A DNA stretch of 64,000 nt from Dictyostelium discoideum (lineage: Eukaryota). The notes below the pieces were generated by a model, which saw nothing but the letters and a program-made list of their open reading frames with translations, was not told the DNA's origin and made no database searches. The stretch lies in assembly GCA_000004695.1 (NCBI GenBank), contig CM000151.3, positions 224,001 through 288,000 of the forward strand, written 5' to 3'. The position numbers and the translations under genes are program-made. Below are positions 34,017-63,112 of the stretch, one piece after another. Numbering within the stretch: the first letter of the stretch is position 1; every line of letters starts with the position of its first letter.

Positions 34017-35749
34017 ATGTCAACAAGTAAAAAAATTAAAACAGATAATAATAAAATATTACAAGATGTGATTGATTATGAAATTTTAAAATCTTTAATA
34101 AATTATTTATTAATCAGCAAAAATAATAAAACAAATTATAATAATACTATTAATCAATATAAAATTAATAAATTTTATTTAAATAGAAATGAAATATTAA
34201 ATTATATATTAGTTTCAAAAAAGTGGTATAATTTTATATCATCAACAATATCAAATAATATTATTGATAATAAATCATTTGAACATTGGTTAAAAATTAA
34301 TTATAATAAAAATAAATCATTTATTGAAAATTACAATAACCAAAATCAATATGATAAAAATAATTTAATTTTTAATGACAAAGAAGATAATCAAAATAAA
34401 ATTAGTTTTAATAAAGAGTTTTCAATTATAAAAATCAAAGAATCAATAATCAATGATTATTTTAAATTCAATTTATTTTTAGATGATATTACAATTGATG
34501 ATTTTAAAGAAATTAAAAATAAATTTGAAAATAATCAATTACTTTATAATAGAATTGTAGTTAATGTTAAAACTGGTTATGAAGGGAATCAAGACGATAG
34601 TATTTTATTCGAAATACATGAATATATATCAAATGAAAATTCAGAAAACATATCAAATTTATTTAAAATATTAGAATTAAATTATAATTATTTGGAAATT
34701 GAGGGCTATAATCCAAGCTCTGAAGAAGATGATGATGAAAGTAATAAGAAATGTACTGAATTATATTTAAATAATTTATCAATTGCTGGTGTTGATAGAG
34801 ATGTAGGTGAAGATGAAGAAACAGTAAAGATATTCAAAATTTTCAAAGGTAAAAATTTAATTTATGATGGATCTGATGTTGCTTGTGATTGTCCAACACA
34901 TGTCGATTATTCAGCATTATTTGATCCAAATAATTCAGGTCAACAAGTTGAATCAATTAAAGTACAAAATAGATTAGATGGTGGTGAATATGTCGAAGCA
35001 CGTCATTTAATCAAAGTTAATCAATTTGAAAATTTACATTCAATTACAATACCAATTAATTCATTTCAAATATTATCAAACCTATCTGAAGAAATGGGAT
35101 TTAATAGTTTCTATAGTAATAGTACAGATTCAGGTAATTCAGAAAATATGAAATCCGAATTAAACCAAATGATTAATTCATTCATTACAAGTAAATCTTT
35201 AAAGAATTTAAATATATCATCCATAGAAAAAGAAGATTCAATTTATAGTGATGATTATGATGATGATGAAACTTTTGCTAATAATATTAATGAAACTATA
35301 GAATCATTTTCAAATTCATTTATACCATTATTTTCAGAATCAAATACATCAATTGAAAGAATTGAATTTGATTGTTGTGGTTTATTAAATATTAATACAT
35401 TTTCAAATTTATTAAAAAACAAATCAATTAAATATTTATATTTATATGATAATAGTGATTTCATTGTTTACTCTTCAAAACAAACTGGTCGTGGTGGTAA
35501 TGATTTACATAAAGAACCTATTTCAATTAATCAATATTTATTTGATAATATATTTTCATCGCCATTAACATCAATTAGACATTATAAAATTAATATCAAA
35601 GAATCAAATCAATTCAAATTAATATTTAATTTAATATTAAATAATATTTTTAAATTACAATTATATTCATTAATATTTGAATTAAATGAAAATGAGTTAG
35701 TTGGTGAATTTGTTAAAGAATTTAAAAATTTAATAAATAATATTTCAAT

Positions 35750-35786
<37 letters not shown>

Positions 35787-35915
35787 AAAGAATCAAATAT
35801 AAATTTAAAAGAAATTAAAATTAAAATCGGAGATGATGAATATATTCCTGAATTAAATAATATTAATAATCCATATTTCACAACAGTAATAAAGAAATTA
35901 CCAAAAAAAAATTAA
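34017..35915 (+). CDS. member A (632 aa) of a tandemly arrayed Dictyostelium-specific family. N-terminal F-box-like motif (DYEILKSLINYLL ... NEILNYILVSKKWYNFIS), acidic linker and a conserved C-terminal domain.
   Basis: Intact intronless ORF. Family-conserved blocks: ETVKIFKIFKGKNLIY, YSALFDPNNSGQQVESIKV, VEARHLIKVNQFENLHSITIPINSFQILSNLSEEMGF, IERIEFDCCGLLNINTFSNLL, PLTSIRHYKI, NPYFTTVIKKLPK. Confidence 0.7.
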
Positions 35916-36279
35916 ATAAATAATATTGGTTAATGAAAATTAATTATTATAAATAGTTTTAATAAAATTTTATTATTATTATTGGTTTTTATTGGTATTA
36001 TTATTTTTTTTTAATTTTTTAATTATTAACCATTTAGATATTAATAAAAAAAAAAAAAAATTTAAGCCCCAATTTAATTGAAAAAAAAAAATATATTTTT
36101 AAAAATATCTTTTTTTTTAGATATTAATAAAAAAAAAAAATAAAAAAATAAAAAAAAAAAAGTTTTTTTGGATAATTTTGAGAGAAAAAAAAAAAGTGAA
36201 GCTTTCATTTTTTTTTTTTTTTTTTTTTTGCTTAAAATTCATCATTCTAAAACACACTTTATTATTTAAACAAATAATA

Positions 36280-38361
36280 ATGCCAAAAAATAAAAAAATA
36301 AAAACAGATAAAAATAATAAAATATTTCAAGATGTTATTGAATTTGAAATTTTAAGATCAATAATCAATTATTTATTAATCAGCAAAAAAAAAAAAAAAA
36401 ATAATAATTATAATACTAGTAGTCAATATAAAATTAATAAATTTTATTTAAATAGAAATGAAATATTAAATTATATATTAGTTTCAAAAAAGTGGTATAA
36501 TTTTATATCATTAACAATATCAAATAATATTATTAATAATAAATTATTTGAATATTGGTTAAAAATTAATTATTACAATAAATCATTTATTGAAAATTAT
36601 AATAATCAAAATAAATATGATAAATATAATTTATTTTTCAATAACATAGAAGATTGCAAAAATAAAATTAGTTTTAATAAAGAGTTTTCAATTATAAAAA
36701 TCAAAGAATCAATAATCAATGATTATTTTAAATTCAATTTATTTTCAAATCATATTACAATTGATGATTTTAAAGAAATTAAAAACAAATTTGAAAATAA
36801 TCAATTACTTTATAATAGAATTGTAGTTAATCTTGAAACTGATTATGGTAGCGATGATGATGATATTTTATTTACAATACATGAATATATATCAAATGAA
36901 AATTGGGAAATCATATCAAATTTATTTAAAATAATAGAATTAAATTTTCATTTTTGGTTAGGTGAAGGTTATCAACCAAAATCTGAGGAGGAGGAGGAGG
37001 AGGAAGAGGAGGAGGAGGAGGAAGATCATCATGATACTGATGAATGTTGTAGTCCAAAATCTGAGGAAGACGATCATGATGAACATTGTAGTCCAAAATC
37101 CAAAGAGGATGATGATCATGACGAAGGTTGTCACCCAAAATCTGAAGAGGAGGAGGAGGAGGAGGAGGATGATCTTGATGATGAAGGTAATAAGAAATGT
37201 ACTGAATTATATTTAAATAGTTTAACAGTTGTTGGGTATGATCAAGATGTAGTTGAAGATGAAGAAACAGTAAAGATATTCAAAATTTTCAAAGGTAAAA
37301 ATTTATTTTATGATGGATCTGGTGATTCAATTGATACGTATACACATGTCAATTATTCAGCATTATTTGATCCAGATAATTCAGGTCAACAAGTTGAATC
37401 AATTAATGTACAAATTGAAACTATTAATGAAGAATTCGTTGAAGCACGTCATTTAATCAAAGTTAATCAATTTGAAAATTTACATTCAATTACAATACCA
37501 ATTAGCTCTTTTCAAATATTATCAAGTTTAGCGAAAGAAATGGGATTTACTAGTTTCTATTATAATAGTAAATCAGAATTTGGTAATTCAAAAAATATGA
37601 AATCAGAATTAAATCAAATGATCAATTCATTCGTTACATGTAAATCTTTAAAGAATTTAAAAATAACATCGGTAAATTTAACAGATTATCATATCAACTA
37701 TGAAGGTTATTATGATGGAAATGGAGATCTTGAAATTTTTGCTAATAAAATAAATGAAACTATAGAATCATATTCAAATTCATTCCAACCATTATTTTCA
37801 GAATTAAATACATCAATTGAAAGAATTGAATTAGATTGTATGCGTTTATTAAATATCAATACATTTTCAAATTTATTAAATAATAAATCAATTAAATATT
37901 TATATTTGTATGGTGATAGTGATTTCATTGTTTACTCTTCAAAATCAAGTGGTTATGGTGGTGGTAGTGAATTACATGAAGAATCTATTTCAATTAATCA
38001 ATTTTTATTTGAAAATATATTTACATCACCATTAACATCAATTAGACATTATAAAATTTGTTTCAAATTATCAAATCAATTAAGATTAATATTTAATTTA
38101 ATTTTAAATAATATTTTCAAATTACAATTATATTCATTAATATTTGAATTCGATGAAAACAAATTAGTTGGCGAATTTGTTAAAGAATTTAAAAATTTAA
38201 TAAATAGTATTCCAACTCAAATACAACAAAAATCAAATAACATAAATTTAAAAGAAATTAAAATTAAAATTGAAGATGATGAATATATTCCTGAATTAAA
38301 TAATATTAATAATCCGTATTTCACAACAATAATAAAGAAAATAGAAAAAAAATATGATTAA
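36280..38361 (+). CDS. family member B (693 aa from ATG 36280), with an expanded acidic insert containing (GAG)n Glu runs and three CSPKSEEDDHDE-type repeats
   Basis: MPKNKKIKTDKNNKIFQDVIEFEILRSIINYLL... The same conserved blocks as member A. The track start 36178 is TTG. Confidence 0.7.
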   Translation: MPKNKKIKTDKNNKIFQDVIEFEILRSIINYLLISKKKKKNNNYNTSSQYKINKFYLNRNEILNYILVSKKWYNFISLTISNNIINNKLFEYWLKINYYNKSFIENYNNQNKYDKYNLFFNNIEDCKNKISFNKEFSIIKIKESIINDYFKFNLFSNHITIDDFKEIKNKFENNQLLYNRIVVNLETDYGSDDDDILFTIHEYISNENWEIISNLFKIIELNFHFWLGEGYQPKSEEEEEEEEEEEEEDHHDTDECCSPKSEEDDHDEHCSPKSKEDDDHDEGCHPKSEEEEEEEEDDLDDEGNKKCTELYLNSLTVVGYDQDVVEDEETVKIFKIFKGKNLFYDGSGDSIDTYTHVNYSALFDPDNSGQQVESINVQIETINEEFVEARHLIKVNQFENLHSITIPISSFQILSSLAKEMGFTSFYYNSKSEFGNSKNMKSELNQMINSFVTCKSLKNLKITSVNLTDYHINYEGYYDGNGDLEIFANKINETIESYSNSFQPLFSELNTSIERIELDCMRLLNINTFSNLLNNKSIKYLYLYGDSDFIVYSSKSSGYGGGSELHEESISINQFLFENIFTSPLTSIRHYKICFKLSNQLRLIFNLILNNIFKLQLYSLIFEFDENKLVGEFVKEFKNLINSIPTQIQQKSNNINLKEIKIKIEDDEYIPELNNINNPYFTTIIKKIEKKYD

Positions 38362-38857
38362 AAAAAAAATAAAAAATAAAAAAAAAATAAAAAAGTGAAA
38401 TAATTTTTTATTTTTATTTTTTTTTTTTAAATAAAGATGTGGTTTCTCAATATTGAGAAGTTTTTTATTTTTTTTTTGAAAATTCTTTTTTTTTTTTTCC
38501 ATTATGGGAGGTCAATTTTTTTTCCAATTTTTTTTATTTTTTTTTATTTTTTTTTTTTATTTTTTTTTTTTAAATCGAATTTTTTACTTTTTTTTTATTT
38601 TTTTCTTTATTTTTGGTAAACATAAAAAAAGAGATATCAAATAGAAAAAAAAAAAAGTTATAAAAAAAAGAGAAATTAATTGTAATCATTTATTAATTAA
38701 ACATAAAGTTATTTTTTTTTTTTTTTTTTTTTTTTTATTCCAATTAATCCCATTTTTATTTTTCATAATAATTTTTATTTCCTTTTTAAAGTCTCATAAA
38801 AAAAAAAATTTAGAATTTGTTGGTCACTCTTTATAATTTAAACAAAAAATAATAATA

Positions 38858-40050
38858 ATATCAACAAGTAAAAAAATAAAAACAGATAATAAAATATTTC
38901 AAGATCTGATTGATTTTGAAATTTTAAGATCCATAACCAATTATTTATTAACTAGCAAAAAAAAAATTAATAATAATAATAATATTAATAATATTAATAA
39001 TTTAAATAATAATAATATTATTAATCAATAAAATTAATAAATTTTATTTAAATAGAAATGAAATATTAAATTATATATTAGTTTCAAAAAAGTTGTATAA
39101 TTTTATATCATTAACAATATCAAATAATATTATTAATAATAAATCATTTGAACATTGGTTAAAAACTAATTATAATAATAATAAATCATTTATTGAAAAT
39201 TATAAAAATCAAAATCAATATGATAAAAATAAAATATTTTATAGCAAAGAAGATTATAATCAATATAAAATTAGTTTTAATAAAGAGTTTTCAACTATAA
39301 AAATCAAAGAATCAATAATCAATGATTATTTTAAATTCAATTTATTTTTAGATAAGCTTACAATTGGTGATATTATAGATATTAAAAATAAATTTGAAAA
39401 TAATCAATTGGTTTATAATAGAATTGTAGTTTATATTAAAACTGATGATGATTGGTTTCCATAATGTGATAATTTATTAAAATATTTAAAATACACGAAT
39501 ATGTATCAAATGGAAATTCAGAAATCATATGAAATTTATTTCAAATATTAGAATTAAATTATGGTTTTAGGTTGCGTAATGGCTATGATCCAAATCTGAA
39601 AGGGTATATTATGATGATAAAGGTAATAAGAAATCAACTGCTGAGTTATATTTTAATAATTTATCAATTGCTGGTAATAGATTTGCAGATGAAGATAACA
39701 AAACAGTCATGGTATTCAAAATATTCAAAGGTAAAAAATTATTTTATAATAAAACTTGTAGATATAGGTCAACACATGTCAATTGTTCATCATTATTTGG
39801 TCCAGATATTTCAGGTCAACAAGTTAAATCAATTGATTTATAAATTCGGTTTGGGAATTTGTTTATGAATTTAAAAATTTAATAAATAATATTTCAATTC
39901 AACAAAAACAACAACAAGAATCAAAACATAAATTTAAAAGAAATTAAAATTAAAATTGTAGTTGATAAATATGAAAAATTTCAAGAACTAAATTATTTTA
40001 AAAATCCATATTTCGCAATAGTAATAAAGAAATTACCAAAATGGTGGTAA
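38858..40050 (+). pseudogene. decayed family member C. Start codon ATG->ATA, internal 2-bp deletion, stops and large deletions; about 1.2 kb remains of about 1.9 kb.
   Basis: AATAATAATATCAACAAGTAAAAAAATAAAAACAGATAAT aligns with the AATAATAATGTCAACAAATAAAAAAAT... leaders of the intact copies. AATCAATAAAATTAATAAATTTTATTTAAATAGAAATGAAATATTAAATTATATATTAGTTTCAAAAAAG matches the family sequence but carries stops. Ends with GTAATAAAGAAATTACCAAAATGGTGGTAA. Confidence 0.6.
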
Positions 40051-40271: not shown

Positions 40272-41340
40272 TCAATTAGGTCCATTTGAACAAAGTCTCA
40301 TTGTTTCTTTAATAAAGGCAACGATATAAGGGGCATTTTGTTTATGATTGAAATTGACATATTCATCATCTTTGACAGCTTTTTTAATTTCTAGATATGC
40401 AATCTCTTGAGGTTCTGGACGATTACATAATTGTAAAATTACCCAATTCATTGTGATTGTAACTGTACCAATGGCTGGTCCAAAAATATCAAAACAAATT
40501 TGATTGATTTTCATTGTATCTTCTTTAGTGATTTCATTTAATCCATATTCAATTAACAAATCATCCATTAAATCTCTTGGTTTACTTGGATCAATTGACT
40601 TAAAATGATTTTCATTTTGACTACTAATTATTTGTCTAACGATATCGCAACCTTTTAATCTTCTAGTAAAGAACCAATCATAAAGTGGTGAGAAAATTTC
40701 AAAACAATCAAATGCAGTTAGTTTTGAAAGATTACCAAAAACATGTTCAACTGCATTACCAATAGTTCTTGACAAGCCACTTTCAACTGATAAATCTTGA
40801 TTAAACATATATTTGAATAACATTGAACAAGCATATCCTTGAATATGTCCTTTTGGATAAAACTTAAAATAATTATTTAATAAATTAATATTAATAATTT
40901 TAATTGTAATTATTATTTCTTTAAAAAAAAACCTATAATTTCATTATTATTCGAAATTTTTTCAAGTGAATCAATAAATTCAATTGCTTTTTCTTCCATT
41001 AATTTTTTAGATGTATGAACTCTTAATTATTAAGAAACACTTGATTTTGCTCTTTTCCATTCGTCATCAGATGAGCTCATTACACCTAATCCATTACTTG
41101 AAGCATATCTCCAACCTGGAACTAAAAGTGATGGTTTGTAAAGGAAATTTTCATCTTTTTGAAAATACTTTACATCATAATTTGAGACAAATAAAAATAA
41201 TCTTTCTCCAATCCATGCTCTTACAATTAATTCATGTTCTTGAATTTTGAATAATTCCCAAAATCTAATTTGAACAACATTTCCAAGAATAGGAAATGCA
41301 ATTGGTCCACTTGGAGATTTTGTATGAATTTTCTTATTTT
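40272..41340 (-). pseudogene. cytochrome P450 pseudogene. N-terminal and central part only, with an in-frame tandem stop TAATAA and no heme-binding (FxxGxRxCxG) region.
   Basis: Minus-strand translation gives SPSGPIAFPILGNVVQI (Pro-rich hinge), DEWKRAKSSVS-stop-stop-LRVHTSKKLMEEKAIEFIDSL, an 80-bp intron, then ...RDLMDDLLIEYG...ICFDIFGPAIGTVTIT (I-helix)...NRPEPQEIAYLEIKKAV...APYIVAFIKETMRLCSNGPN-stop. No downstream exon encodes the Cys-ligand loop before the next element at about 40050. Confidence 0.6.
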
Positions 41341-42224: not shown

Positions 42225-45200
42225 ATGATTGAAGGAAATTTTGAAAAAAACAATGATAACCAAGTTGCAATAATTGGTCTTGGGCTAAGATTACCAGGTA
42301 ACTCGGGATCTCCTTTAGAGTTTTGGAAAAACTTGCTTGGTGGTTTTGATGGAATTGTTGATTCTAATGAAAGGTAAAAAAAAAAAAAAAAATTTAAAAA
42401 ATAAATAAATAAAAAATTAGAATTATAAAAAAAAAAATAAAAATAAAAAAAAAAATAAAAATAAAAATAAAAAAAAGTGATGGCGACTCACCTCTAACAC
42501 ACCATATTTTTTTTTATTTTAATTTTTTTCTTTTTTTTCATTTTCATCACCGTTGTCTTCATTTTTTTTTTTTTTTTTTAAATTATTATTTTTATTTATT
42601 TAGATGGAGCGACACATTCCATAGTATGGGAGAAATCTCAAATAAGAATGCAGGATTAATTGACTTGGAAGAGAATTGGCATTCTTTTGAGCCATTGTTT
42701 TTTGGGATCAATCCAACCGATGCTAAACAAATTGATCCACAAATTAAATTAATGTTAAAGTTAACATGGGAAGCATTTGAAGATGCATCAATTGATCCTT
42801 TAAAACTCAGAGGAACAAATACTTCTGTTTTTGTTGGTGCCGCAAATACTGATTATTCTTTTATTAATTTCGAATAAAATGAAGCGCCAATCAATGTTTT
42901 TAATGGTACTCTCAGCGCATTTGCAAATAGAATATCATATTGTTTTGATTTACGTGGTACTTCATTAACAATTGACACTGCATGTTCATCATCATTAAAT
43001 GCAGTTCATTTAGGATATGAATCAATTGTTAATGGTAAATCAAATTACTCTGTAGTAGCTGGTTGTAATATATTATTAAGTAATTATTATTATAATATTA
43101 GTAGCACACACATATATATAAAATAGTTTTCATATTTCTAATATTTTATTTTTATTATTATTATTATTCTAAAAAAAGATCCATATATTACTAGATCATT
43201 TCATTCAATTAATATTACAGGTAAATCTGGTAGATGTAATTCATTTGATGAATCTGCTGATGGTTTTGTACGTTCAGAAGGTGTTGTTGTATTAATTTTA
43301 AAAAGATTATCACTTGCAATTCAAGATAACGATCAAATTTATTGTGTAATGAAAGGAAGTAGTTCAAATGTAGATGGTACTTTTAAGAAAACAAACTTTT
43401 TTGCACCTTCAAAAAGTGCACAATCAACTAATATCAAAAATGCATTTTTATCATCTAATGGTGCAGTGAAATATCAAGATATTGATTTCTTTGAATTACA
43501 TAGTACAGGTACACAAGTAGGTGATCCAATCGAAGTTGAAGCTGTTGCTGATATTTTTAAAAATGTTAAACAAGAACCATTATTAATTGGATCAGTTAAA
43601 TCAAATATTGGTCATCTTGAACCTGCATCAGGTGTAGCATCATTAGCAAAAGTTTGTTTAATGTTTAAACATCGTCAATTTGTAAAGAATATCCATTTCA
43701 ATAACCCAAATCCAAATATTAAATTCAAAGAATGGAATGTTAAAGTATGCACAGAAACAACAGCATTCCCAGATAGACAAGTATCAATGGCAATCAATAG
43801 TTTTGGTATAACTGGTTCAAATGCATGTGTTTTATTGTCTGAATATATTAAACCTTCAGAATTAAAAAATCAAACATCCATGAAATTAAATGAAAAATCA
43901 AAATTATTAATACCAATATCAACCAACTCAAAGAAGTCACTCGAACAATTCAAATCAAAACTACTTGAAGAAATTGATACATACTCTGAAAGCTTAACTT
44001 TTGAAGAGTTTGCAATGTTCCAAGTTTATTCAAAAACAACCAAATTATCACAAAGATCAGTTTTAATTGGTAATGATTGGAATGATTTAAAAATTAATAT
44101 AAATGAAATTATTTCAACAAAAAATAATAAATCTGGTAATATTATCAAATCAAATGATATTAATCCACCATTAGTATTTTCATTTTGTGGTCAAGGTCCT
44201 CAATATTCAAAAATGGGTTTAGATTTATATGAAAATGAACCAATATTTAAACAATATATGGATTTATTAGATTCAATACTATTTAAATATTATGGATATT
44301 CAATCATTCAAAAACTAAGATCAATTAATGATGATCCAATTCTAATTAATGAACCAATATTAGCTCAACCATCTATATTTATGATTCAAATATCATTATA
44401 TAAATTATATTTGCATTGGGGAATCACACCATCAATAATAGTTGGCCATAGTTTAGGAGAAGTAGCCAGTGCATTTTGTTCAGGTATGATTGATTTAGAA
44501 ACAGCATGCTTCGTGATATATAAAAGAGCAATCATTCAAAATAAAACCAATGGATCTGGAAGACTTTTAGCAATTGGTTTAAATCTTGAAGAATTCTATA
44601 ATCAATTTTCAAAGGAATATCCAGAAATTGAAATTTCATGTTTTAACTCACCATCATCAATCGTTGTATGTGGTAATGAACATGATATATTAAATATTTC
44701 AAAATCATTAAAAGAGAAACAAATATTCAACTCTTTATTAGGTACACCATCAGCATTTCATTCATCAAAACAAGATATAATCAAAGATGAAATTATAGAA
44801 TCAACCAATCATATCCGATCAAGACCACCTTCTATAACAACATTTTCAACAGTCACATCAAATAAATTCGATAAAAATACACCTTATAATTCAAATTATA
44901 TATTTGACAATTTAAGAAAGCCAGTATTATTTCAACAAACCATTGAAAACATATTCAAACATATTGAATCAAATGATTTAGGTAATTCAGTAATATTTTT
45001 AGAATTGTCACCTCATCCAACTTTAAACCATTATGTTAAAGAAATGATTCCAAAGAATTCAAATTACTTTTTAAACAAAGATTCAATAAGTGTATTATCA
45101 TCAATAAATAAGAAAAAAGAAGATATCAACGAAATTCAATCAACAATTTCACAACTTTATTGTTTTGGTTACAATGTCGATTTTAGTGCCCAATTTAAAT

Positions 45201-48200: not shown

Positions 48201-49016
48201 TTGAAGCATCACACTCTTTAGTTTATTTAACTTCATATTGTAGTTTATTCGAACTTGGTAGATTGGATTTATATGGTTCAAGTGAAACAGTTTTAATTCA
48301 TTCAGGAAGTGGTGGTATTGGTTTATCTTGTATCGATTTATTACAAGTATATGGATTTAAAGGATATTTATTTGTAACTGTAGGCTCTGAAGAAAAGAAA
48401 CAATTTTTAAAAGATCGTTATGGTGATTTCATCACAGAGATTTATTCAACTAAAAATACAGACTATGAATATTTAATTAAAGAGAAATTAATTGAATTAA
48501 AAGCACCATCTCAAAAATATGGTAGTTTTTCAATGATTTGTGTGGATTTAATTATAAATACTTTATCAGCAGATTATATGTCCTGAATTTTCAAATAATC
48601 ACAACTTTATCCATCGTTCGTCAAATTATAAAATTCATCAAGATACTTTAGGTAAAACAATATTAATAACAGGTCAAGCAGGTCTTTCAGATACAATCAT
48701 AAAATGGATAAGAGAAAAAAGATCAGATTCTATTGAATCAATAATAGTATTATCAAAATCACCAATTAAATTTGAATTAGAAAGAGCAATTGGTAGAATA
48801 AGATCAACAAATTTGAAAATCTATTTTAAACAAGTTGATATTTCAGATGAAAAACTTTTATTAAAATCAATTAATCAATTATTTGAAGAAAATAAAAATA
48901 TTAAACCAATTGAATCAATATTCCATAATGCATTTTCACCAGCAGAATGTGAACCATTAGAAATTGATATGAATCATTTAATTATTGGTTTGATTAAAAA
49001 AAAAAAAAATGAATGA
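42225..49016 (+). pseudogene. type I iterative highly reducing polyketide synthase (KS-AT-DH-cMT-ER-KR'), disrupted. Exons 42225-42373, 42604-43079 and 43179 onward. There is an in-frame TAA in KS at 42875-42877, a +1 frameshift between ER and KR at about 48556-48586, and truncation of KR at 49016.
   Basis: KS: [49 protein letters not shown]|R|WSDTF..., TIDTACSSSLNAVHLGYESI, GSVKSNIGHLEPASG. AT: GQGPQY...IVGHSLGEVASAFCSG. DH: HQFRGKSIFPGVGYLD. cMT: ILEIGCGVGELT. ER: VLIHSGSGGIGLSCIDLL. KR (in the +1 frame): ILITGQAGLSDTIIKWI...ends GLIKKKKNE-stop. No ACP follows. Splice sites: AG|GTAAAA, TTTAG|A, AA|GTAATT and AAAAAG|AT, phases consistent. Confidence 0.7.
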
Positions 49017-51866: not shown

Positions 51867-54800
51867 ATGAATAATGAATATAATGAAATATTATTTTGGA
51901 AAGTTTTTAAAAATAAATATTTATTAAATTATATATTAAAAAATAAATGTTGTCGTAAAAGTAAAAAATTTAAAAATATCACATCAGTAGATTCAATGTT
52001 AAAACATAAATTATATCAACTTTTGATATGTAAATTAAAAGCAGATGAAAATTTAAAATTTAAACATAGAAATTATAAAATCATGAATGAAATAAAAGAT
52101 ATAGAAGTATTCAAAGAGATATATTCATTATTACTTTTTAAAGGTTACCAAGGCTCTGAGGTTTTATTCGAAAAGATTTGGGGTATAAAATCAGTAGATT
52201 TATTTGATTTTCATATAAAATATCATCCAGAAGTATTTCAAACCTATATAGATCTTAAAATACACTCAATCTTCATATATAATCATCCAAAATTAATAAT
52301 AAAGGTTTTAAAATTTTTAGAAGAGTCCATCAATCATAATAAACCATTTACTTTTACCAAAATTGAAAGAAATTTTATCATTATGGAATATTTATATTAT
52401 AAACAACACCGATGCAATAGTGAAGAATTTAAAGAAAAGATGGAAATAATATCTAATATTCCAATATCTTCAACCTCAATACTTCAAAATTCATTTTCAA
52501 GTTCAGATAATAGTGTGGATGTAAATTGGTATCTAAAAAATAAAAAATTAATACCTTTTGGATTTAATAATATTCAAACATCATTTCATTGCTCTAAAGA
52601 AACTTTAAGATATTATTTCTCTCGTATTGGCGAGAAGAGAGATAAAGATATTCAACAATCTGTTTATTGCAAAAATAATTTAAGAATGTTTTCAAACTTT
52701 TGTTCTGACTTTGATTTTGCTATTTCCGACATCTATGAATGTATCTCTTCATCTATCAATTCAGTTTTATTATATTTTAAATTGTATTATTGCAACTATC
52801 ATGAATTTAGTAAATCAAAAAGTATACCAACATCGATTCAAACTCAAATTGATATAATAATTGGAAATAGTAAACATAGTGATTATAATGAATATCAATC
52901 AATTAAACAATTATTTCAACTATTTATTAATGAAACTAAATCTAATGTTTTATATGCATGGTATTTAAAAGAATATAATGAACCAATTGACACCATTCGA
53001 CTCTGTGAAAAAATTAAACTATTGTTAATATATTTTATGGCAAAAACCTATAGCACCAATATATTAAAGTTTCTATTGAAAAAACATGTAAAAATCAATA
53101 TAACAAAATCAGATTTGGACTATATTGGTGAAACATATCTCAACACTTTATTCAAAAGTAATCAAATAGATAATAACAATATTATTATGTTCTATAAAAT
53201 CTATTCCACACAAAAATCAATCATTATAGAAGATATTGAAGAAAAACCATTAGATGATGTAATATCAACAAAGGAACTTATCGATTTGCCTGAAAAACAA
53301 TTTCAATTAATTCTATTATCGAAATGGAAAGAAATTACATCAAATCTAATTGATAATGATATGATTGTTACAATTAAAGATAAAGAAACAATCGATTGGT
53401 TATCAGATATCGAAACAGGTGGTTGTAGTATTTTAAAAATAAGAAATGCTTTAAATTCAAAATTAAATCAAATGAAACTTGATTTTAGTACATCAGAATT
53501 ATTAGAATATGCAAGAATCAAATTTAAACGAGTAATTCCAATTTTAGATTCAAATAAACAGTTGTGTAATATTCACATTTTACGTACTCATGATGATATT
53601 GTATCATTAATCAATCGATTAAACCAATCAAACTTTAATGATAATGAAGATTTATTTAAATATTATATGATTCAAATTATTCAATTTGGTTCAAAAAATT
53701 CAATTAAATACCTAAGATTAATTTGTGATTCTATTGATGGGTTATTGTTGGACTATCTTGATTGGGGGGTTTTAGTAATGAGAATATTTAATTACGATTT
53801 GAGACTGTTTTATATTAACTCATATATATATGATATTTGGGATGTTTCGGCAGGTTATCATGAAAATGAAAAATTCAAACAATATAAAATACCAACTCAA
53901 CAAACATGTCAAATAATCAATCTCACTAAAATTAAAGTAAATTTCAATAACTTTCCAAATGTAACCTCTTATTTATTTCAAACATTTATTGAACTTTTAA
54001 ATTTTGAAGGTGTACAATTTATTCTTGATAATTTAAATGGTAAAGATTTAAAATTACATGAAAAAGCATTTAAAGATCGTTTTGATCATAGAATCTATAC
54101 ATGCAAATATTTATATAAAGATTTAATTGATATTATTCAGTTTTTAATTGATAGATTCAAAGATGGTCAATTATCATTATCAAATTTATCATTGATATTA
54201 AATTTCTTTTATTTAAAGTTAATTAGAGTCAATAATTTAACAATTGACCAAATTAAAACAGCTCATCAATTAATATCAAATTATATCAAAATAAAGAGTT
54301 CAAAATACACTTCATACTATTATTTAAAAACTTTTTCACCAATCATCGGATCATGTGTAGTCGTTATTGAAGTTCCCTGTGGTAGTTCTTTAAAAGAACC
54401 ATTCTTGAAATATTATATAAATACATCAGTATATACATTCGAATATATATTTACTGATAGAAATAATAAAGATTTAAATCAATTTATCGATTCAACAATC
54501 ATGGACATTGTAAAAGATAACTTTAATATCCAAGTCTCCAAGATGTTAGATTATAATAATCCAAGAGTTAATTTATTTTTACATTATTTCGAAATTGAAT
54601 TAAAATTTAGAAAGGAAAATAAAATCAAAAAACCATTTTTAAAATACCAACTATTGAAATTAATAATTAAAACATTTGATTTAGAATCATTTATTAAATT
54701 AGATAATTTATTACAACAATATGAACAAGAGGATGCTAATGATGATGGTGGACATGAAAATATAATAGGATCTATAGATAAATATAGATCCTATAGATAT

Positions 54801-54956
54801 TATGTCAAACCATTAGCATCTAATATGGTTGAATGGTTTGGTATAATTGTATACAAAGATTATTCAGATTATCAAGATATTATAAATTACTTATTTAATA
54901 AATATAAAAGCCAATTGAAACCATATGTAAATTACTATAAATCAAAAATCTGGTAG
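51867..54956 (+). CDS. intact 1029-aa protein of unknown function, intronless. Its N-terminus shares the ILFWKVFKNKYLLNYIL motif with FNIP-family N-termini.
   Basis: ATG at 51867 to TAG at 54954-54956, with no internal stops. Lys/Asn/Ile-rich; no catalytic motif recognised. Confidence 0.55.
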   Translation: MNNEYNEILFWKVFKNKYLLNYILKNKCCRKSKKFKNITSVDSMLKHKLYQLLICKLKADENLKFKHRNYKIMNEIKDIEVFKEIYSLLLFKGYQGSEVLFEKIWGIKSVDLFDFHIKYHPEVFQTYIDLKIHSIFIYNHPKLIIKVLKFLEESINHNKPFTFTKIERNFIIMEYLYYKQHRCNSEEFKEKMEIISNIPISSTSILQNSFSSSDNSVDVNWYLKNKKLIPFGFNNIQTSFHCSKETLRYYFSRIGEKRDKDIQQSVYCKNNLRMFSNFCSDFDFAISDIYECISSSINSVLLYFKLYYCNYHEFSKSKSIPTSIQTQIDIIIGNSKHSDYNEYQSIKQLFQLFINETKSNVLYAWYLKEYNEPIDTIRLCEKIKLLLIYFMAKTYSTNILKFLLKKHVKINITKSDLDYIGETYLNTLFKSNQIDNNNIIMFYKIYSTQKSIIIEDIEEKPLDDVISTKELIDLPEKQFQLILLSKWKEITSNLIDNDMIVTIKDKETIDWLSDIETGGCSILKIRNALNSKLNQMKLDFSTSELLEYARIKFKRVIPILDSNKQLCNIHILRTHDDIVSLINRLNQSNFNDNEDLFKYYMIQIIQFGSKNSIKYLRLICDSIDGLLLDYLDWGVLVMRIFNYDLRLFYINSYIYDIWDVSAGYHENEKFKQYKIPTQQTCQIINLTKIKVNFNNFPNVTSYLFQTFIELLNFEGVQFILDNLNGKDLKLHEKAFKDRFDHRIYTCKYLYKDLIDIIQFLIDRFKDGQLSLSNLSLILNFFYLKLIRVNNLTIDQIKTAHQLISNYIKIKSSKYTSYYYLKTFSPIIGSCVVVIEVPCGSSLKEPFLKYYINTSVYTFEYIFTDRNNKDLNQFIDSTIMDIVKDNFNIQVSKMLDYNNPRVNLFLHYFEIELKFRKENKIKKPFLKYQLLKLIIKTFDLESFIKLDNLLQQYEQEDANDDGGHENIIGSIDKYRSYRYYVKPLASNMVEWFGIIVYKDYSDYQDIINYLFNKYKSQLKPYVNYYKSKIW

Positions 54957-55447: not shown

Positions 55448-57436
55448 ATGTCAACAAATAAAAAATTTAAAAAATATAATAATAAAATATTTCAAGATGT
55501 TATTGATTTTGAAATTTTAAGATCTATAATCAATTATTTATTAACCAGCAACACAAATAAAAAAAATAATAATAATAATTACAACACTAGTAATCAATAT
55601 AAAATTAATAAATTTTATTTAAATGGAAATGAAATATTAAATTATACATTAGTTTCAAAAAAGTGGTATAATTTTATATCATTAACAATATCAAATAATA
55701 TTATTAATAATAAATTATTTGAACATTGGTTAAAAATTAATTATAATAATAATAATAATTATAATATTATTAATAATAAATCATTTGATAATTGGTTAAA
55801 AATTTATAATAATAATAATAATAAATCATTTATTGAAAACTATAATAATCGAAATCAATATGATAAAAATAATTTATTTTTAAAAAGTGCTAAACAAAAT
55901 AAAATTAGCCAATTTAAAATTAGTTTCAATAAAGAGTTTTCAATTATAAAAATCAAAGAATCAATAATTAATGATTATTTTAAATTCAATTTATTTTTAG
56001 ATTATATTACAATTGATGATTTTAAAGAAATTAAAAAGAAATTTGAAAATAATCAATTACTTTATAATAGAATTGTAATTGATATTAATATTGGAAATGG
56101 TTATGATGATTATAGTTCAAACCAAAGTGATATTATATTTAAAATACATGAATATATATCAAATGAAAATTTAGAGACTATATCAAATTTATTTAAAATA
56201 TTAGAATTAAATTATGTTTATTTGGAAATTGGGGATTATATTCCAAAATCCCCTGAAAAGGGCAAAAGTAATAATAAGAAATGTACCGAAATGTATTTTA
56301 AAAGTTTATCAGTTGATGGTTTATATGAGAACGAAGAAACAGTAAAGATATTCAAAATTTTCAAAGGTAAAAATGTAATATTTCATGGTCCAACACATGC
56401 CGACTCACCATTATTTGACCCAGATAATTCAGGTCAACAAGTTGAATCATTTAAAGTACAAACTGATTTATTCGGATCTTTTGTTGAAGCACGTCATCTA
56501 ATCAAAAGTAATCAATTTGAAAATTTACATTCAATTTCAATAAAAATTAATTCATTTCAAATATTATCAAATATATCTGAAGAAATGGGATCTTATAGAT
56601 TCTATAATAATCATAATTATAAAAATGATCCACCAGATTCGAAAAATATGAAATCAGAATTAAATCAAATGATTAACTCATTCATTACAAGTAAATCTTT
56701 AAAGAATTTAAAAATAACAGCCAATAATACTACACACTATTCAATTGAATATGATGCTTGCTATATTGGAGGTGATCATGAAACTTTTGCAAATAAAATA
56801 AATGAAAATATAGAATCATATTCAAATTCATTTAAACCATTATTTTCAGAATTAAATACATCAATTGAAAGAATTGAATTAAATTGTTGTGGTTTATTAA
56901 ATATCAATACATTTTCAAATTTATTAAATAATAAATCAATTAAATATCTATATTTATACGGTGATAGTGATTTCATTGTTTACTCATCAAAACAAAATGG
57001 TGGTAATAGTGGTGGTGGTGATGGTGTATTACATAAAGAATCTATTTCAATTAATCAGTATTTATTTGATAATATATTTACATCACCATTAACATCAATT
57101 AGACATTATAGAATTAAATTCAAAGAATCAAATCAATTAAAATTAATATTTAATTTAATATTTAATAATATTTTTAAATTACAATTGTATTCATTAATAT
57201 TTAAAATTTATAAAAACGAATTAGTTGGTGAATTTGTTAAAGAATTTAAAAATTTAATAAATAATATTTCAACACAACAAGATCAACAACAAAAATTAAA
57301 TAACATATATTTAAAAGAAATTAAAATAAAAATTGAAGATGATAAATATATTCAAGAATTAAATAATATTAAAAATCCATATTTCACAACAGTAATAAAG
57401 AAATTACCAAAAAGGTTGTGTACACTTAAAAGATAA
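55448..57436 (+). CDS. family member D (662 aa from ATG 55448) of the F-box-like tandem family
   Basis: MSTNKKFKKYNNKIFQDVIDFEILRSIINYLL...KWYNFISLTISNNIINN...IERIELNCCGLLNINTFSNLL. Conserved leader CATTAGTCAGCTCACTCTTACAAATAATT upstream. The track start 55349 is GTG. Confidence 0.7.
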   Translation: MSTNKKFKKYNNKIFQDVIDFEILRSIINYLLTSNTNKKNNNNNYNTSNQYKINKFYLNGNEILNYTLVSKKWYNFISLTISNNIINNKLFEHWLKINYNNNNNYNIINNKSFDNWLKIYNNNNNKSFIENYNNRNQYDKNNLFLKSAKQNKISQFKISFNKEFSIIKIKESIINDYFKFNLFLDYITIDDFKEIKKKFENNQLLYNRIVIDINIGNGYDDYSSNQSDIIFKIHEYISNENLETISNLFKILELNYVYLEIGDYIPKSPEKGKSNNKKCTEMYFKSLSVDGLYENEETVKIFKIFKGKNVIFHGPTHADSPLFDPDNSGQQVESFKVQTDLFGSFVEARHLIKSNQFENLHSISIKINSFQILSNISEEMGSYRFYNNHNYKNDPPDSKNMKSELNQMINSFITSKSLKNLKITANNTTHYSIEYDACYIGGDHETFANKINENIESYSNSFKPLFSELNTSIERIELNCCGLLNINTFSNLLNNKSIKYLYLYGDSDFIVYSSKQNGGNSGGGDGVLHKESISINQYLFDNIFTSPLTSIRHYRIKFKESNQLKLIFNLIFNNIFKLQLYSLIFKIYKNELVGEFVKEFKNLINNISTQQDQQQKLNNIYLKEIKIKIEDDKYIQELNNIKNPYFTTVIKKLPKRLCTLKR

Positions 57437-57439
57437 AAA

Positions 57440-57945
57440 ATAAAACATCAAAAAAACTGGTGATTATGGTAGTGGTGGAAGTGGTAGTGGTAATAGTGGT
57501 GGTGATGGTGTATTACATAAAGAACCTATTTCAATTAATCAATATTTATTTGAAAATATATTTACATCTCAATAAACATCAATTAGACATTATAAAATTA
57601 AATTCAAAAATTCAAAACAATTAAAATTAATATTTAATTTAATATTAAATAATATTTTTAAATTACAATTATATTCATTAATATTTGAATTCTATGAAAA
57701 AGAATTAATTGGCGAATTTGATAAAGAATTTAAAAATTTAATAAATAATATTTCAACACAACAACAACAAAAATCAAATAACATAAATCTAAAAGAAATT
57801 AAAATTAAAATTAAAATTAAAATTAGACATAATGAATTAATTCAAAAATTAAATAATATTAATAATCCATATTTCAAAACAGTGATAAAGAAAATAGCTT
57901 TTAATGATGGTCGTGCACCGGAGAAAAAAACCTAAGAAATTTTAC
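57440..57945 (+). pseudogene. C-terminal remnant (about 150 codons) of a family member directly abutting member D. A partial tandem duplication with an in-frame stop (TCTCAATAAACATCA vs family TCACCATTAACATCA).
   Basis: GDGVLHKEPISINQYLFENIFTSQ-stop-TSIRHYKIKFKNSKQLKLIFNLILNNIFKLQLYSLIFEF...NPYFKTVIKKIA parallels the C-termini of the intact members. Confidence 0.6.
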
Positions 57946-58760: not shown

Positions 58761-58802
<42 letters not shown>

Positions 58803-58898
58803 AAATTTAATTTTTTTTTTTAATTTTTTTATTAAAAAAAAAAAAAAAAAAAATCTAGCATTAGTCAGACTCACTCTTTATAATTTAGACTAATAATA

Positions 58899-60827
58899 AT
58901 GTCAACAAATAAAAAAATAAAAACAGATAATAATAATAAAAAATTACAAGATATTATTGATTTTGAAATTTTAAAATCTATAATTAATTATTTATTAATC
59001 AACAAAAAAAATAATAATAATAATAATAATACTAGTAATCAATATAAAATTAATAAATTTTATTTTAATATAAATGAAATATTAAATTATATATTAGTTT
59101 CAAAAAAGTGGTATAATTTTATATCATTAACAATATCAAATAATATTATTAATAATAAATCATTTGAACATTGTTTAAAAATTAATTATAATAATAATAA
59201 TAAATCATTTATTGAAAATTATAATAATCAAAATCAATATGATAAAAATTATTTAATTTTTAAAAACAAAGATAATAACCAATATAAAATTAGTTTTAAT
59301 AAAGAGTTTACAATTATAAAAATCAAAGAATCAATAATTGAAGATTATTTTAAATTCAATTTATTTTTACATAAGTTTGAATTTGAAGATTTTAAAGAAA
59401 TTAAAAATAAATTTGAAAATAATCAATTACTTTATAATAGAATTGTAGTTAATGTTGATACTGATTATATGTGTGAAGATGATACTTTATTAAGAATACA
59501 GAAATATATATCAAATGAGAATCCAGAAATCATATCAAATTTATTTAAAATATTAGAATTAAATTTTGGTTTTTGGTTGGAAAATGGTTATCGTCCAGAT
59601 TCTGAAGAGGATGAGGAGGAGGGGGAGGATGATGATGATGATACTGATGATAAAGGTAATAAGAAATGTACCACTGAATTATATTTAAATAATATATCAA
59701 TTGATGGTTTTTGTATAGATGATGGTGAAGATAATGAAACAGTAAAGATATTCAAAATTTTAAAAGGTAGAAATTTAATTTATAGGGGATCTGATGTTGA
59801 AAGTGATAGTCCGACACATGTCAATTATTCAGCATTATTTGATCCAGACAATTCAGGCCAACAAGTTGAATCAATTAAAGTAAAAAATGAGTCTGATAAT
59901 GAAGAATTTGTTGAAGCACGTCATTTAATCAAAGTTCATCAATTTGAAAATTTACATTCAATTACAATACCAATTAATTCATTTCAAATATTATCAAACT
60001 TATCTGAAGAAATGGGATTTTATTCGTTATATCGTAATAATGCAGATTCAGGTAATTCAGAAAATATGAAATCAGAATTAAATCAAATGATCAATTCATT
60101 AATTACATGTAAATCTTTAAAGAATTTAAATTTATCATGTGCAAAATATATAAGCTTTAGTTTTGATGATTTTTCTCGTTTTGATCAAATTTTTGCTAAT
60201 CAAATAAATGAAACTATAGAATCATATTCAAATTCCTTTAAACCATTATTTTCAGAATTAAATACATCAATTGAAAGAATTGAATTTGATTGTATGGGTT
60301 TATTAAATATCAATACATTTTCAAATTTATTAAATAATAAATCAATTAAATATTTATATTTGTATGGTAATAGTGATTTCATTGTTTACTCATCAAAACA
60401 AACTGGTGATAATGGTGGTGGTGGTGATGATGATATTAATGAATTACATAAAGAACTTATTTCAACTAATCAATATTTATTTGATAATATATTTTCATCA
60501 CCATTAACATCAATTAGACATTATAAAATTAAATTCATAGAATCAAAACAAATAAAATTCATATTTAATTTAATATTAAATAATATTTTTAAATTACAAT
60601 TATATTCATTAATATTCGAATTCAATGAAAACGAAATAGTTGGTGAATTTGTTAAAGAGTATAAAGATTTAATAAATAATATTTCAACACAACAAAAACA
60701 AGAACAAAAATCAAATAACATAAATTTAAAAGAAATTAAAATTAAAATTAAAGATGATAAATATATTCAAGAATTAAATAATATTAATAATCCATATTTC
60801 TCAACAGTAATAAAGAAAATGGCTTGA
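58899..60827 (+). CDS. family member E (642 aa)
   Basis: Intact ORF from ATG 58899. Leader CATTAGTCAGACTCACTCTTTATAATTTAGACTAATAATAATG. Conserved family blocks. Confidence 0.7.
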   Translation: MSTNKKIKTDNNNKKLQDIIDFEILKSIINYLLINKKNNNNNNNTSNQYKINKFYFNINEILNYILVSKKWYNFISLTISNNIINNKSFEHCLKINYNNNNKSFIENYNNQNQYDKNYLIFKNKDNNQYKISFNKEFTIIKIKESIIEDYFKFNLFLHKFEFEDFKEIKNKFENNQLLYNRIVVNVDTDYMCEDDTLLRIQKYISNENPEIISNLFKILELNFGFWLENGYRPDSEEDEEEGEDDDDDTDDKGNKKCTTELYLNNISIDGFCIDDGEDNETVKIFKILKGRNLIYRGSDVESDSPTHVNYSALFDPDNSGQQVESIKVKNESDNEEFVEARHLIKVHQFENLHSITIPINSFQILSNLSEEMGFYSLYRNNADSGNSENMKSELNQMINSLITCKSLKNLNLSCAKYISFSFDDFSRFDQIFANQINETIESYSNSFKPLFSELNTSIERIEFDCMGLLNINTFSNLLNNKSIKYLYLYGNSDFIVYSSKQTGDNGGGGDDDINELHKELISTNQYLFDNIFSSPLTSIRHYKIKFIESKQIKFIFNLILNNIFKLQLYSLIFEFNENEIVGEFVKEYKDLINNISTQQKQEQKSNNINLKEIKIKIKDDKYIQELNNINNPYFSTVIKKMA

Positions 60828-61189
60828 TTAAGGTTATTTATAAAAAAAAAAAAAAATAAAAAAAAAAATAAAAAAACTTATATTTTTTAAATTTATAATT
60901 TTTTTTTTTTTCATTTTATGTGGACCTATCTTTTTCCAAAAACTAATTATGTTTTTTTTTTTTTTTTAATACATTAACATAAATTTTTTTTTTTTTCACA
61001 CAATAACACACATTTTTTGAAATTAATTTTTGATATTTTTTTTTTTTTACCAAAAAAAAAAAATATTAAATTAAATTTTTTTTTTTTTTTATTTTTTTAT
61101 TTTAATACAGGTCAACCAATTGGCAAACTAAAAAAAAAAAAAAATTTAACATTAGTTAGACTCACTCTTAATAATTTTAATAAATAATA

Positions 61190-61297
61190 ATGTTAACAAA
61201 TAAACAAATAAAAACAGATAACAATAAAATATTTCAAGATATTATTGATTTTGAAATATTAAAATCAATAATCAATTATTTATTAATTAGCAAAAAT

Positions 61298-61345
<48 letters not shown>

Positions 61346-63112
61346 AGTAATCAATATAAAATTAGTAAATTTTATTTAAATAGAAATGAAATATTAAATT
61401 ATATATTAGTTTCAAAAAAGTGGTATAATTTTTTATCATTAACAATATCAAATAATTTTATTAATAATAAATCATTTGAACATTGGTTAAACATTGATAA
61501 AAATAATAATAAATCATTTATTGAAAATTATAATAATCAAAATCAATATGATAAAAATAATTTAATTTATAAAAACAAAGATAATAAACAAAATAAAATT
61601 AGTTATAATAAGGAATTTTCAATTATAAAAATCAAAGAATCAATAATCAATGATTATTTTAAATTCAATTTATTTTTAAATAGTATTACAGTTGATGAAT
61701 TTACAGAAATTAAAAATAAATTTGAAAATAATCAATTACTTTATAATAGAATTATAGTTAATCTAGAAACTAGTTATGATGCGGATGTTACTCTATTTAT
61801 AATACATGAATATCTCTCAAATGAAAACTCAGAAATCATATCAAATTTATTTAAAATATTAGAATTAAATTATAATTTTTTGTTGCCTGGAGGTAATAGT
61901 CCAAATTTAGAAGAGGAGGAGGATGATACTGATGATGAAGGTAATAATGAAGGTACTGAATTATATTTTAATAATTTATCAATTTCTAGTTATAATGAAA
62001 ATGTAGTTGAAGATAGAGAAACAGTAATGATATTTAAAATTTTTAAAGGCAAAAATTTAATTTATAAAAGATCTCAAGTTGATTATGATTATCCAACACA
62101 TATGAATTATTCAGAATTATTTGATCCAGATAATTCTGGTCAACAAGTTGAATCGATTAAAGTAATAATTGAAACTGATGGTAATGGAGAGTCTGTTGAA
62201 GCACGTCATTTAATCAAAGTTAATCAATTTGAAAATTTACATTCAATTACAATACCAATTTATTCATTTCAAATATTATCAAACTTATCTGAAGAAATAG
62301 GATTTTTTGTGTTCTATCGTAATAATGCAGAATTTGGTAATTCAGGTACTTCAGAAAATATGAAATCAGAATTAATTCAAATGATTAATTCATTCGTTAC
62401 AAGTAAATCTTTAAAGAATTTAAATATATCATCAGTAAATTCAAACTACTCAATTAGTTATAAAGATTATGCTAGTTATGATGGTGATCATGAAATTTTG
62501 GCTAATAATATAAATGAAAATATAGAATCATTTTCAAATTGTTTTAAACCATTATTTTCAGAATTAAATACATCAATTGAAAGAATTGGATTTGATTGTT
62601 GTGGTTTATTAAAAATCAATACATTTTCAAATTTATTAAATAATAAATCAATTAAATATTTATATTTAAATAATTGTGATTTCATTGTTCACTCACCAAA
62701 ACCAATTGATAGTGATTTACATAAAGAACCAATTTCAATTAATAAATATTTATTTGATAATATATTTTCATCACCATTAACATCAATTAGACATTATAAA
62801 ATTAATATCAAAAAATTGAAACAATTAAAATTCATATTTAATTTAATATTAAATAATATTTTTAAATTACAATTATATTCATTAATATTCGAATTCAGTC
62901 AAAACGAATTAATTGGTGAATTTTTTAAAGAACTTAAAAATTTAATAAATAATATTTCAACACAGCAACAACAACAACAACAACAACAAAAAATATCAAA
63001 TAACATAAATTTAAAAGAAATTAAAATTAAAATTAAAGATGATGAACACATTCAAGAATTAAATAATATTAATAATCCATATTTTGCAACAGTGATAAAG
63101 AAAATAGCTTGA
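61190..63112 (+). CDS. family member F (640 aa)
   Basis: Intact ORF from ATG 61190. Leader CATTAGTTAGACTCACTCTTAATAATTTTAATAAATAATAATG. Conserved family blocks. Confidence 0.7.

Follow-up and report, generated by a model that had tools for sequence, protein, structure and literature searches.

The window analysed here, a 64,000-nucleotide stretch of chromosome 2 of Dictyostelium discoideum AX4 (contig CM000151.3, positions 224,001 to 288,000; G+C about 20%), carries a split tandem array of paralogous genes whose products are predicted to join an N-terminal F-box, divided by an Asn-rich insertion, to a C-terminal leucine-rich repeat (LRR) solenoid. The array members, in window positions, are as follows, with the open reading frame (ORF) listing, alignment or search on which each entry rests.

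34017..35915, + strand: copy 1, intact paralog, 632 amino acids (ORF listing, alignment, tblastn)
36280..38361, + strand: copy 2, intact paralog, 693 amino acids, with an enlarged acidic/His-rich insertion (ORF listing, alignment)
38885..40038, + strand: decayed copy, homologous pieces in three reading frames, residues ~327-580 deleted (tblastn)
55448..57436, + strand: copy 3, DDB_G0271406, intact paralog, 662 amino acids (100% match to database protein P0034)
57513..57899, + strand: decayed copy, a C-terminal fragment with only residues 516-642 (tblastn)
58899..60827, + strand: copy 4, DDB_G0271408, intact paralog, 642 amino acids (100% match to database protein P0001)
61190..63112, + strand: copy 5, intact paralog, 640 amino acids (ORF listing, alignment, tblastn)

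An earlier sequence-only reading of this DNA had proposed five intact same-strand paralogs starting at ATG codons, two decayed copies, and a shared identity of 60-80% with a set of common motifs, all of which was borne out. In a five-way alignment the paralogs are colinear end to end, with 76-79% identity to copy 1 in aligned columns (64-75% pairwise by tblastn when gaps are counted), every motif is present, and the insertions and deletions are in frame. The mechanical ORFs of copies 2 and 3 extend upstream to TTG or GTG, and the ATG was taken as the sensible start. The description of the genes as intronless holds for copies 3 and 4, which match their annotated models exactly; exact translations of copies 1, 2 and 5 were absent from the protein collection searched, and their annotated models may differ. 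Where DDB_G identifiers are given for copies 1, 2 and 5, they rest on string matches to Fig. S3 of Boland et al. 2022 (J Biol Chem 298:102305, PMC9485057), an alignment of 83 predicted F-box sequences that includes proteins recovered by Skp1 co-immunoprecipitation and mass spectrometry. By this comparison copy 2 is identified as DDB_G0271404, its F-box QDVIEFEILRSIINYL and its loop LISKKKKKNN.YNTSSQYKINKFYL agreeing with the printed strings, and copy 1 is probably DDB_G0271228, judging from its F-box string and the loop KNNK..TNYNNT. In copy 2 the internal acidic insertion, at residues ~250-340, is enlarged to some 90 residues and comprises His-rich runs and three C[SH]PKSEE(D)-like units; the length of this insertion differs greatly from paralog to paralog.

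For the C-terminal part, AlphaFold2 run with a 63-sequence family alignment predicted alternating strands and helices over residues ~150-642 (predicted template-modelling score, pTM, 0.70), and beyond residue 150 most 10-residue blocks have a mean predicted local distance difference test score (pLDDT) of 70-97, save for a few disordered insertions. The model has the form of a curved alpha/beta solenoid of strand-helix units, and its Foldseek neighbours are NLRP3, ribonuclease inhibitor (RNI), FBXL3, SKP2 and FBXL2, as well as FBXL17, COI1 and TIR1. On this structural evidence residues ~150-642 are a predicted LRR solenoid of the RNI/FBXL type, in which the conserved blocks LHSITIPI, LKNLNIS, IERIEFDC, IKYLYLY, IRHYKI, LYSLIFEF and LKEIKIKI correspond to repeat strands. 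In copy 4 the F-box occupies residues 17-80 and is followed by a low-confidence linker (residues 81-150) and the LRR domain (residues 150-642), which is the FBXL layout.

59346..60824, + strand: copy 4 LRR solenoid, residues ~150-642, about 15 irregular repeats, including a disordered acidic insertion at residues 233-257

We call the domain divergent because no Pfam LRR model picks up the fold; the LRR was seen by structure prediction. A novel fold was ruled out by the structural matches to RNI/FBXL-type LRRs, and the sequence-only reading of a novel substrate-binding domain thus gives way to an LRR solenoid, the commonest partner domain of F-boxes. The variable acidic segment, which had been placed as a linker between the two domains, is instead a disordered insertion (copy 4 residues 233-257, pLDDT <50) between two strands of the repeat domain.

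The N-terminus was compared with the Pfam F-box and F-box-like profiles (PF00646, gathering cut-off 20.5 bits; PF12937, 24.3) and with a reference alignment of ten classical F-box segments (SKP2, FBXW7, BTRC, Cdc4, TIR1, FBXL3, FBXL2, FBXL5, FBXO2 and Met30), each of which scores above the Pfam F-box cut-offs. Natively, the best PF00646 match reaches 13.6 bits (E 0.068) and is confined to profile positions 15-38, that is, helices 2-3 (copy 1 residues 54-77). PF00646 is, though sub-threshold, the Pfam family that recurs most among the 63 members, and the distant relative DDB_G0272490 carries the UniRef name 'F-box domain-containing protein'. With hhalign, a 77-sequence N-terminal family profile matched the ten reference F-boxes with 66% probability (P 5.5e-5) over 22 columns, again helices 2-3, and nine other 110-column windows of the family each gave <0.5%. 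The three-helix motif (LPxE[IL]L..I...L, L..L..V[SC]KxW..L) falls into register once an insertion between helices 1 and 2 is allowed, which divides the domain in copy 4 as follows.

58947..58994, + strand: F-box helix 1, residues 17-32, QDIIDFEILKSIINYL, with I-D for L-P; Pfam profile positions 6-16 (spliced hhalign)
58995..59066, + strand: helix 1-2 loop insertion, residues 33-56, LINKKNNNNNNNTSNQYKINKFYF, 24 residues, Asn-rich
59067..59138, + strand: F-box helices 2-3, residues 57-80, NINEILNYILVSKKWYNFISLTIS; the copy 1 equivalent natively matches PF00646 15-38 (hhalign P 5.5e-5)

Residues 33-56 of copy 4 were removed in silico in the register that the motif predicts (E23 to E, I28 to I, L32 to L). 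This register had the top score of 81 splice variants, the high scores forming a ridge at constant loop length. The spliced profile of the 63-sequence alignment matched the F-box reference at 91.9% hhalign probability (E 6.8e-7, 37 columns), with a score of 33.7 vs 21.7 +/- 1.6 (maximum 30.5) when 174 control family segments were substituted for helix 1. The helix 1 pattern DFEILKSIINYL fits profile positions 4-16, well above the controls. Against PF00646, copy 1 scored 23.3 bits after splicing, copy 2 26.5, copy 3 25.7 and copy 5 24.8 (profile positions 6-38), and all five window copies, at 23.3-26.5 bits, exceeded the cut-off, as did relatives from D. purpureum (31.7), D. cf. discoideum (24.4) and D. 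dimigraforme (20.9). The spliced D. purpureum relative also matched PF12937, at 30.8 bits; the spliced window copies stayed below the PF12937 cut-off, and two relatives stayed below cut-off even after splicing. The proposal of an F-box split by an Asn-rich insertion is thereby upheld, and the same split was drawn by Boland et al.; the profile search that it had invited fails on the native sequences and succeeds, for PF00646, once the insertion is taken out.

The insertion varies from 1 to 37 residues across relatives, usually 21-28, and its QYKINKFY portion is conserved; AlphaFold2 depicts it, at low confidence, as a hairpin with a disordered tip. The segment QYKINKFYL within it was considered as helix 1, prompted by the native Pfam start at position 15, and was rejected, as it supplies the end of helix 1 only. 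In a D. purpureum protein of 755 amino acids (DICPUDRAFT_74430, P0126), the family F-box module, with a 16-residue loop, stands behind a SAP domain, and the BLASTP alignment to copy 4 is confined to the N-terminal ~85 residues; judged from sequence, this layout hints at domain shuffling or at an older origin of the inserted F-box.

Association of these proteins with Skp1 is already on record. Boland et al. performed co-immunoprecipitations with anti-myc on Skp1-myc cells and with the anti-Skp1 antibody UOK77, each with control co-immunoprecipitations, and their Fig. S3 includes seven family members as Skp1 interactors: DDB_G0271408, 0271404, 0347826, 0271202, 0271228, 0271418 and 0271434 (PMC9485057). 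Some of these paralogs were recovered with two antibodies. All are entered there as predicted F-box-like sequences with 'LRR+' in the receptor column, assigned by Swiss-Model. DDB_G0271408 is printed as 'QDIIDFEILKSIINYL*NINEILNYILV-SKKWYNF...' with the helix 1-2 loop '(LINKKNNNNNNNTSNQYKINKFYF)' and with 'slug' in the PhyA-enhanced column. The registers in that figure are inconsistent among paralogs, DDB_G0271228 and 0271434 being shown with the loop between helices 2 and 3. The family identifiers are missing from the main text of that paper, which handles the hits separately and not as one family, and our literature search found no paper naming these genes in its main text. In the annotated sequence of DDB_G0271202 (P0035), helix 3 LVSKK is followed by CIINNKL, vs WYNFISL in the others, so that the invariant Trp is lost (C instead); this protein is listed in the Skp1 co-immunoprecipitations with both antibodies despite the missing Trp, which could mean that the gene model is faulty (a mis-called intron), that peptides were shared, or that binding does not depend on helix 3.

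Conservation along the proteins is uneven. Across the 63 members, column entropy is lowest in the F-box region (0.69) and is 1.22 in the LRR domain, within which strands have 1.00, helices 0.95 and coil 1.51; the ten most variable windows mostly lie directly after a strand (in copy 4, for example, residues 186-195, 223-232, 269-278, 296-305, 328-337 and 418-427). The helix-1 and helix-2/3 motifs of the F-box are kept in relatives of merely 27-31% identity. Ratios of nonsynonymous to synonymous divergence (dN/dS, omega) were estimated by the Nei-Gojobori (NG86) method on nine copies, with partitions taken from the predicted structure only; the values, with 95% bootstrap intervals, are no demonstration of positive selection, NG86 being crude at 80% A+T.

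whole protein: 0.86 (0.74-1.01)
F-box: 0.73 (0.40-1.62)
LRR helices: 0.85 (0.60-1.27)
LRR strands: 0.92 (0.60-1.50)
other coil: 0.74 (0.52-1.04)
post-strand loops: 1.13 (0.85-1.54)

Pairwise ratios range from 0.62 to 1.09. In the post-strand loops dN (0.41) and dS (0.36) are each about threefold above the remainder, the dS of the scaffold being 0.13-0.16; this joint rise could come from gene conversion of the scaffold, from older divergence retained in the loops, or from alignment noise in segments rich in insertions and deletions. A neutral simulation with the observed substitution spectrum at 6% divergence produced about 9 new stop codons per ORF and left none of 2000 ORFs open; since all five are open here, they are neither chance nor neutral and are clearly maintained.

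Taken together, these results suggest that the array encodes FBXL-type F-box proteins that most likely serve as interchangeable substrate receptors of SCF (Skp1-cullin-1-F-box) ubiquitin ligases, a reading to which we assign a probability of roughly 70%. In the mechanism that we envisage, the N-terminal F-box would consist of helix 1 (DFEILKSIINYL), a lineage-specific Asn-rich insertion of about 24 residues, and helices 2-3 (NEILNYILVSKKWYNFIS), and would dock directly onto Skp1; after a short linker, the LRR solenoid, about 490 residues long, would bind the substrate to be ubiquitinated by a cullin-containing complex. Copies arise by tandem duplication and vanish by decay, with the repeat scaffold and the F-box conserved and the post-strand loops and the internal acidic insertion diverging fast; because of this fast divergence, different copies probably recognise different targets, their specificity presumably residing in the variable loops.

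Several observations weigh against this interpretation. No native sequence among the 63 members reaches the Pfam F-box or F-box-like gathering score; even at E <= 10, PF00646 matches six of the 63 and PF12937 two (best E 0.043). The canonical Leu-Pro of the F-box is Ile-Asp in the family. Two natural relatives with short loops (P0111, with a loop of ~1 residue, and P0035, with 11) had no Pfam F-box match when scanned natively; P0111, a fragment of 139 residues, has an additional loop residue as well as Phe substitutions and hence offers no independent confirmation of the splice experiment. At E <= 10 the five window copies matched no Pfam LRR family, and none was among the 25 families that recurred most in the 63 members, the sole Pfam LRR signal being LRR_At5g56370 at E 0.094 in a distant relative (P0130). 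A PDB sequence search with the whole-family profile returned no F-box protein; its sole match, Ro60 at E 1.9, was dismissed as chance, and by sequence alone the family has no tie to a solved F-box or LRR protein. Confidence in the predicted N-terminus is low in both AlphaFold2 runs: residues 1-100, modelled from 26 diverse sequences, gave helices at 11-32, 53-65 and 69-85 with a mean pLDDT of 57.7 and a pTM of 0.37, and in the full-length model the F-box region has pLDDT <50. Foldseek found no PDB match at E < 1 for the N-terminal model. On the biochemical side, co-immunoprecipitation is no proof of direct Skp1 binding, and shared peptides among paralogs 65-80% identical could blur the assignment of members by mass spectrometry. 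Our literature search found no data on a substrate, on assembly with cullin-1/Rbx1 or on ubiquitination for any family member.

Some of these points would also fit an LRR family that retains a degenerate, non-functional F-box relic and acts outside the SCF, its co-immunoprecipitation with Skp1 being indirect or the result of mis-assigned shared peptides. The failure of all native sequences at the Pfam F-box cut-offs, the Ile-Asp substitution, the interruption of the domain by 24 residues, the low-confidence N-terminal model and the presence among the interactors of DDB_G0271202, with C for the invariant helix 3 Trp, speak for a relic; yet no part of the protein is more conserved than the F-box segment (entropy 0.69 vs 1.22 in the LRR), its helix motifs persist in relatives of 27-31% identity, seven paralogs were recovered with Skp1, some by two antibodies, and other insertion-bearing F-boxes were accepted in the same study (PMC9485057). 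We regard a relic as unlikely.

A little less likely still is that the proteins bind Skp1 without being receptors, as SCF substrates, as Skp1 buffers or competitors, or as parts of Skp1 complexes lacking a cullin. Boland et al. remark that certain F-box proteins may themselves be substrates, and they report that the two antibodies catch different Skp1 sub-complexes and that no cullins were present in the UOK77 co-immunoprecipitations (PMC9485057); moreover, no substrate of the family is known. Such roles sit poorly with the combination of an F-box and LRRs, which is the classical receptor layout and has FBXL2, FBXL3, FBXL17, SKP2, COI1 and TIR1 as structural neighbours, and with the variability of the LRR loops, which suggests a diversifying binding surface. 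A nearly neutral, decaying orphan repeat family without maintained function, as the omega values near 1 (0.86 overall, 0.62-1.09 pairwise), the two decayed copies in the window and the many truncated members in other strains might suggest, is very unlikely in view of the five ORFs that stay open where neutrality predicts about 9 stops in each, the in-frame insertions and deletions, and the peptides seen by mass spectrometry (PMC9485057). Nothing pointed to a transposon or an artefact as the source of the array, though no search aimed at this was made.

A word-index search retrieved 86 clusters, assigned to D. discoideum or D. cf. discoideum wherever the organism was named; ten of these bear the names of AX4 genes, and strain ACTFIW by itself contributes at least 42 clusters that are distinct at 90% identity. 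An exhaustive search with a profile hidden Markov model over 1.84 billion representatives gave 58 matches, and those whose source was looked up belong to D. discoideum, D. citrinum, D. dimigraforme, D. firmibasis and D. purpureum. The family thus appears, as had been proposed, to be Dictyostelium-specific: all named clusters and all looked-up matches are from this genus. Its members are 'hypothetical protein' with no Pfam domain in the database entries examined. Copy 4 shares 27-31% identity with relatives outside the D. discoideum complex, compared with 86% between the neighbouring LISK kinase and its homolog in D. citrinum. The kinase search listed no D. discoideum cluster, and DDB_G0271218, another gene of the window, belongs to another multigene family, so neither offers a within-species calibration and only the between-species contrast (86% vs 27-31%) is usable.

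Our statement on within-species diversity is based on the cluster counts and on one wild-strain locus (L001; ACTFIW, JBTAPG010000035.1:221525-243453), where 11 same-strand genes lie within 22 kb. The queried gene and at least the four genes translated from there belong to the family, and stretches matching the window copies at the DNA level, the best at 90%, run along most of the locus. The locus is dominated by family copies, several of them truncated, and its positions 18504-19473 resemble, at 84%, the sequence just downstream of copy 5 (63064-63998), so that the array flank is partly common and strongly diverged. Truncated members are numerous in other strains as well. The core family is confined to the D. 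discoideum complex, and its arrays are very different between strains.

A further, more speculative extension is that the family forms an SCF receptor repertoire that is hypervariable within the species, with edge loops under diversifying selection, a scaffold homogenised by gene conversion, a use in conflict (with intracellular bacteria or bacterial effectors, with selfish elements, or with cheater or non-kin cells during chimeric development, for example) and a coupling to O2-dependent Skp1 glycosylation; such a repertoire would parallel the fast-evolving F-box families of nematodes and plants. We consider this combination doubtful as a whole. It is consistent with the data because dN and dS are threefold higher in the loops with an omega of 1.13, the wild locus has 11 copies with none >90% matched, at least 42 clusters come from ACTFIW, and relatives are 27-31% identical vs 86% for the kinase. 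The pattern of dN/dS near 1, variable loops and strain-divergent arrays fits the conflict or recognition role that the sequence-only reading had raised, without showing one.

Among known systems, the closest are the candidates of Boland et al., which are the same genes (DDB_G0271408 is copy 4, DDB_G0271404 copy 2) with the same F-box, loop and 'LRR+' label; their study does not describe the tandem arrangement of the genes, the variability of the loops, the dN/dS pattern or the differences among strains. FBXL proteins (SKP2, FBXL2, FBXL3, FBXL17) and plant TIR1, COI1 and MAX2 share only ~10% identity with the array proteins, which, unlike them, fall natively below the Pfam LRR and F-box thresholds, have the 24-residue split and I-D for L-P, and possess irregular repeats of 25-55 residues as well as disordered acidic insertions; in structure, the array proteins are best matched by RNI/NLRP-type LRRs. 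Two reports, on F-box expansions in C. elegans wild isolates (PMC8120010) and on waves of expansion in plants (PMC3719486), describe, as here, tandem arrays, birth-and-death turnover and high within-species diversity, with variation in the substrate-binding domain and not in the F-box. According to these reports, the partner domains are FTH/FBA/DUF38 or kelch/FBD in nematodes and plants, whereas they are LRRs here, and positive selection was documented with population and site models, in contrast to our crude NG86 estimate of 1.13 (0.85-1.54) in the variable loops. FNIP-repeat LRR proteins, which occur in Dictyostelium and giant viruses, appear to be distinct: neither the window copies nor the 63 members have a Pfam FNIP match, and the label given to the family in PMC9485057 is 'LRR+', not 'LRR/FNIP'.

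Other genes and gene fragments of the window are the following.

20515-24096, 24684-28181 and 28762-32367, + strand: three tandem ORFs of ~1200 amino acids, whose N-terminus is signal-like and whose C-terminal tail is hydrophobic
32636-33478, + strand: Cys-rich Dicty_CTDC repeat protein (PF00526, 9 repeats, E 2e-73)
33300-33863, + strand: second ORF in another frame, continuing the CDDxxxCTTDSC repeats
40272-40823, - strand: cytochrome P450 fragment (profile positions 155-337 of 462)
43349-48586, + strand: type I polyketide synthase piece, with the C-terminal half of the ketosynthase (KS), acyltransferase (AT), dehydratase (DH), methyltransferase and enoyl reductase (ER) domains; begins mid-KS
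51867-54956, + strand: DDB_G0271218, ORF of 1029 amino acids, no Pfam domain

Between the first two of the ~1200-residue ORFs identity is 92%, and the third matches them at 53%; all three lack a Pfam match and form another lineage-specific tandem family adjoining the F-box/LRR array. The Dicty_CTDC pair of ORFs suggests, from its reading frames, a short intron, a frameshift or a pseudogene. The P450 fragment, the polyketide synthase piece and DDB_G0271218 separate the two halves of the array; the first two of these are multi-exon genes or pseudogenes. The family of DDB_G0271218, with members of ~1000-1100 amino acids, was found in D. discoideum and D. cf. discoideum only in the search made, and forms tandem clusters elsewhere (DDB_G0276401/03/09/559 and ACTFIW_004465-70); its N-terminus, NEILFWKVFKNKYLLNYIL, resembles those of other Dictyostelium repeat proteins.

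The split F-box, the LRR assignment and the Skp1 association of these genes had been published before, and we count the finding as already known in essence because the same genes appeared as Skp1-associated F-box/LRR candidates with the same split. Our additions are a consistent F-box register, the variable post-strand loops, a dN/dS of ~0.86 with kept ORFs, the recognition of a core family of the D. discoideum complex, and its strain-divergent arrays. The one source of functional information on these genes is a supplementary figure (PMC9485057), and a consistent annotation, as an F-box with a helix 1-2 insertion followed by LRRs, would apply to at least 13 genes of AX4 and to dozens from wild strains. 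The family would provide a protist example of lineage-specific, tandemly expanding F-box receptors, and it may form a sizeable share of a Skp1 interactome that shifts with development and with Skp1 glycosylation. If the loops do prove adaptive, the array would offer an accessible social-amoeba system in which to seek the targets of fast-evolving SCF receptors.

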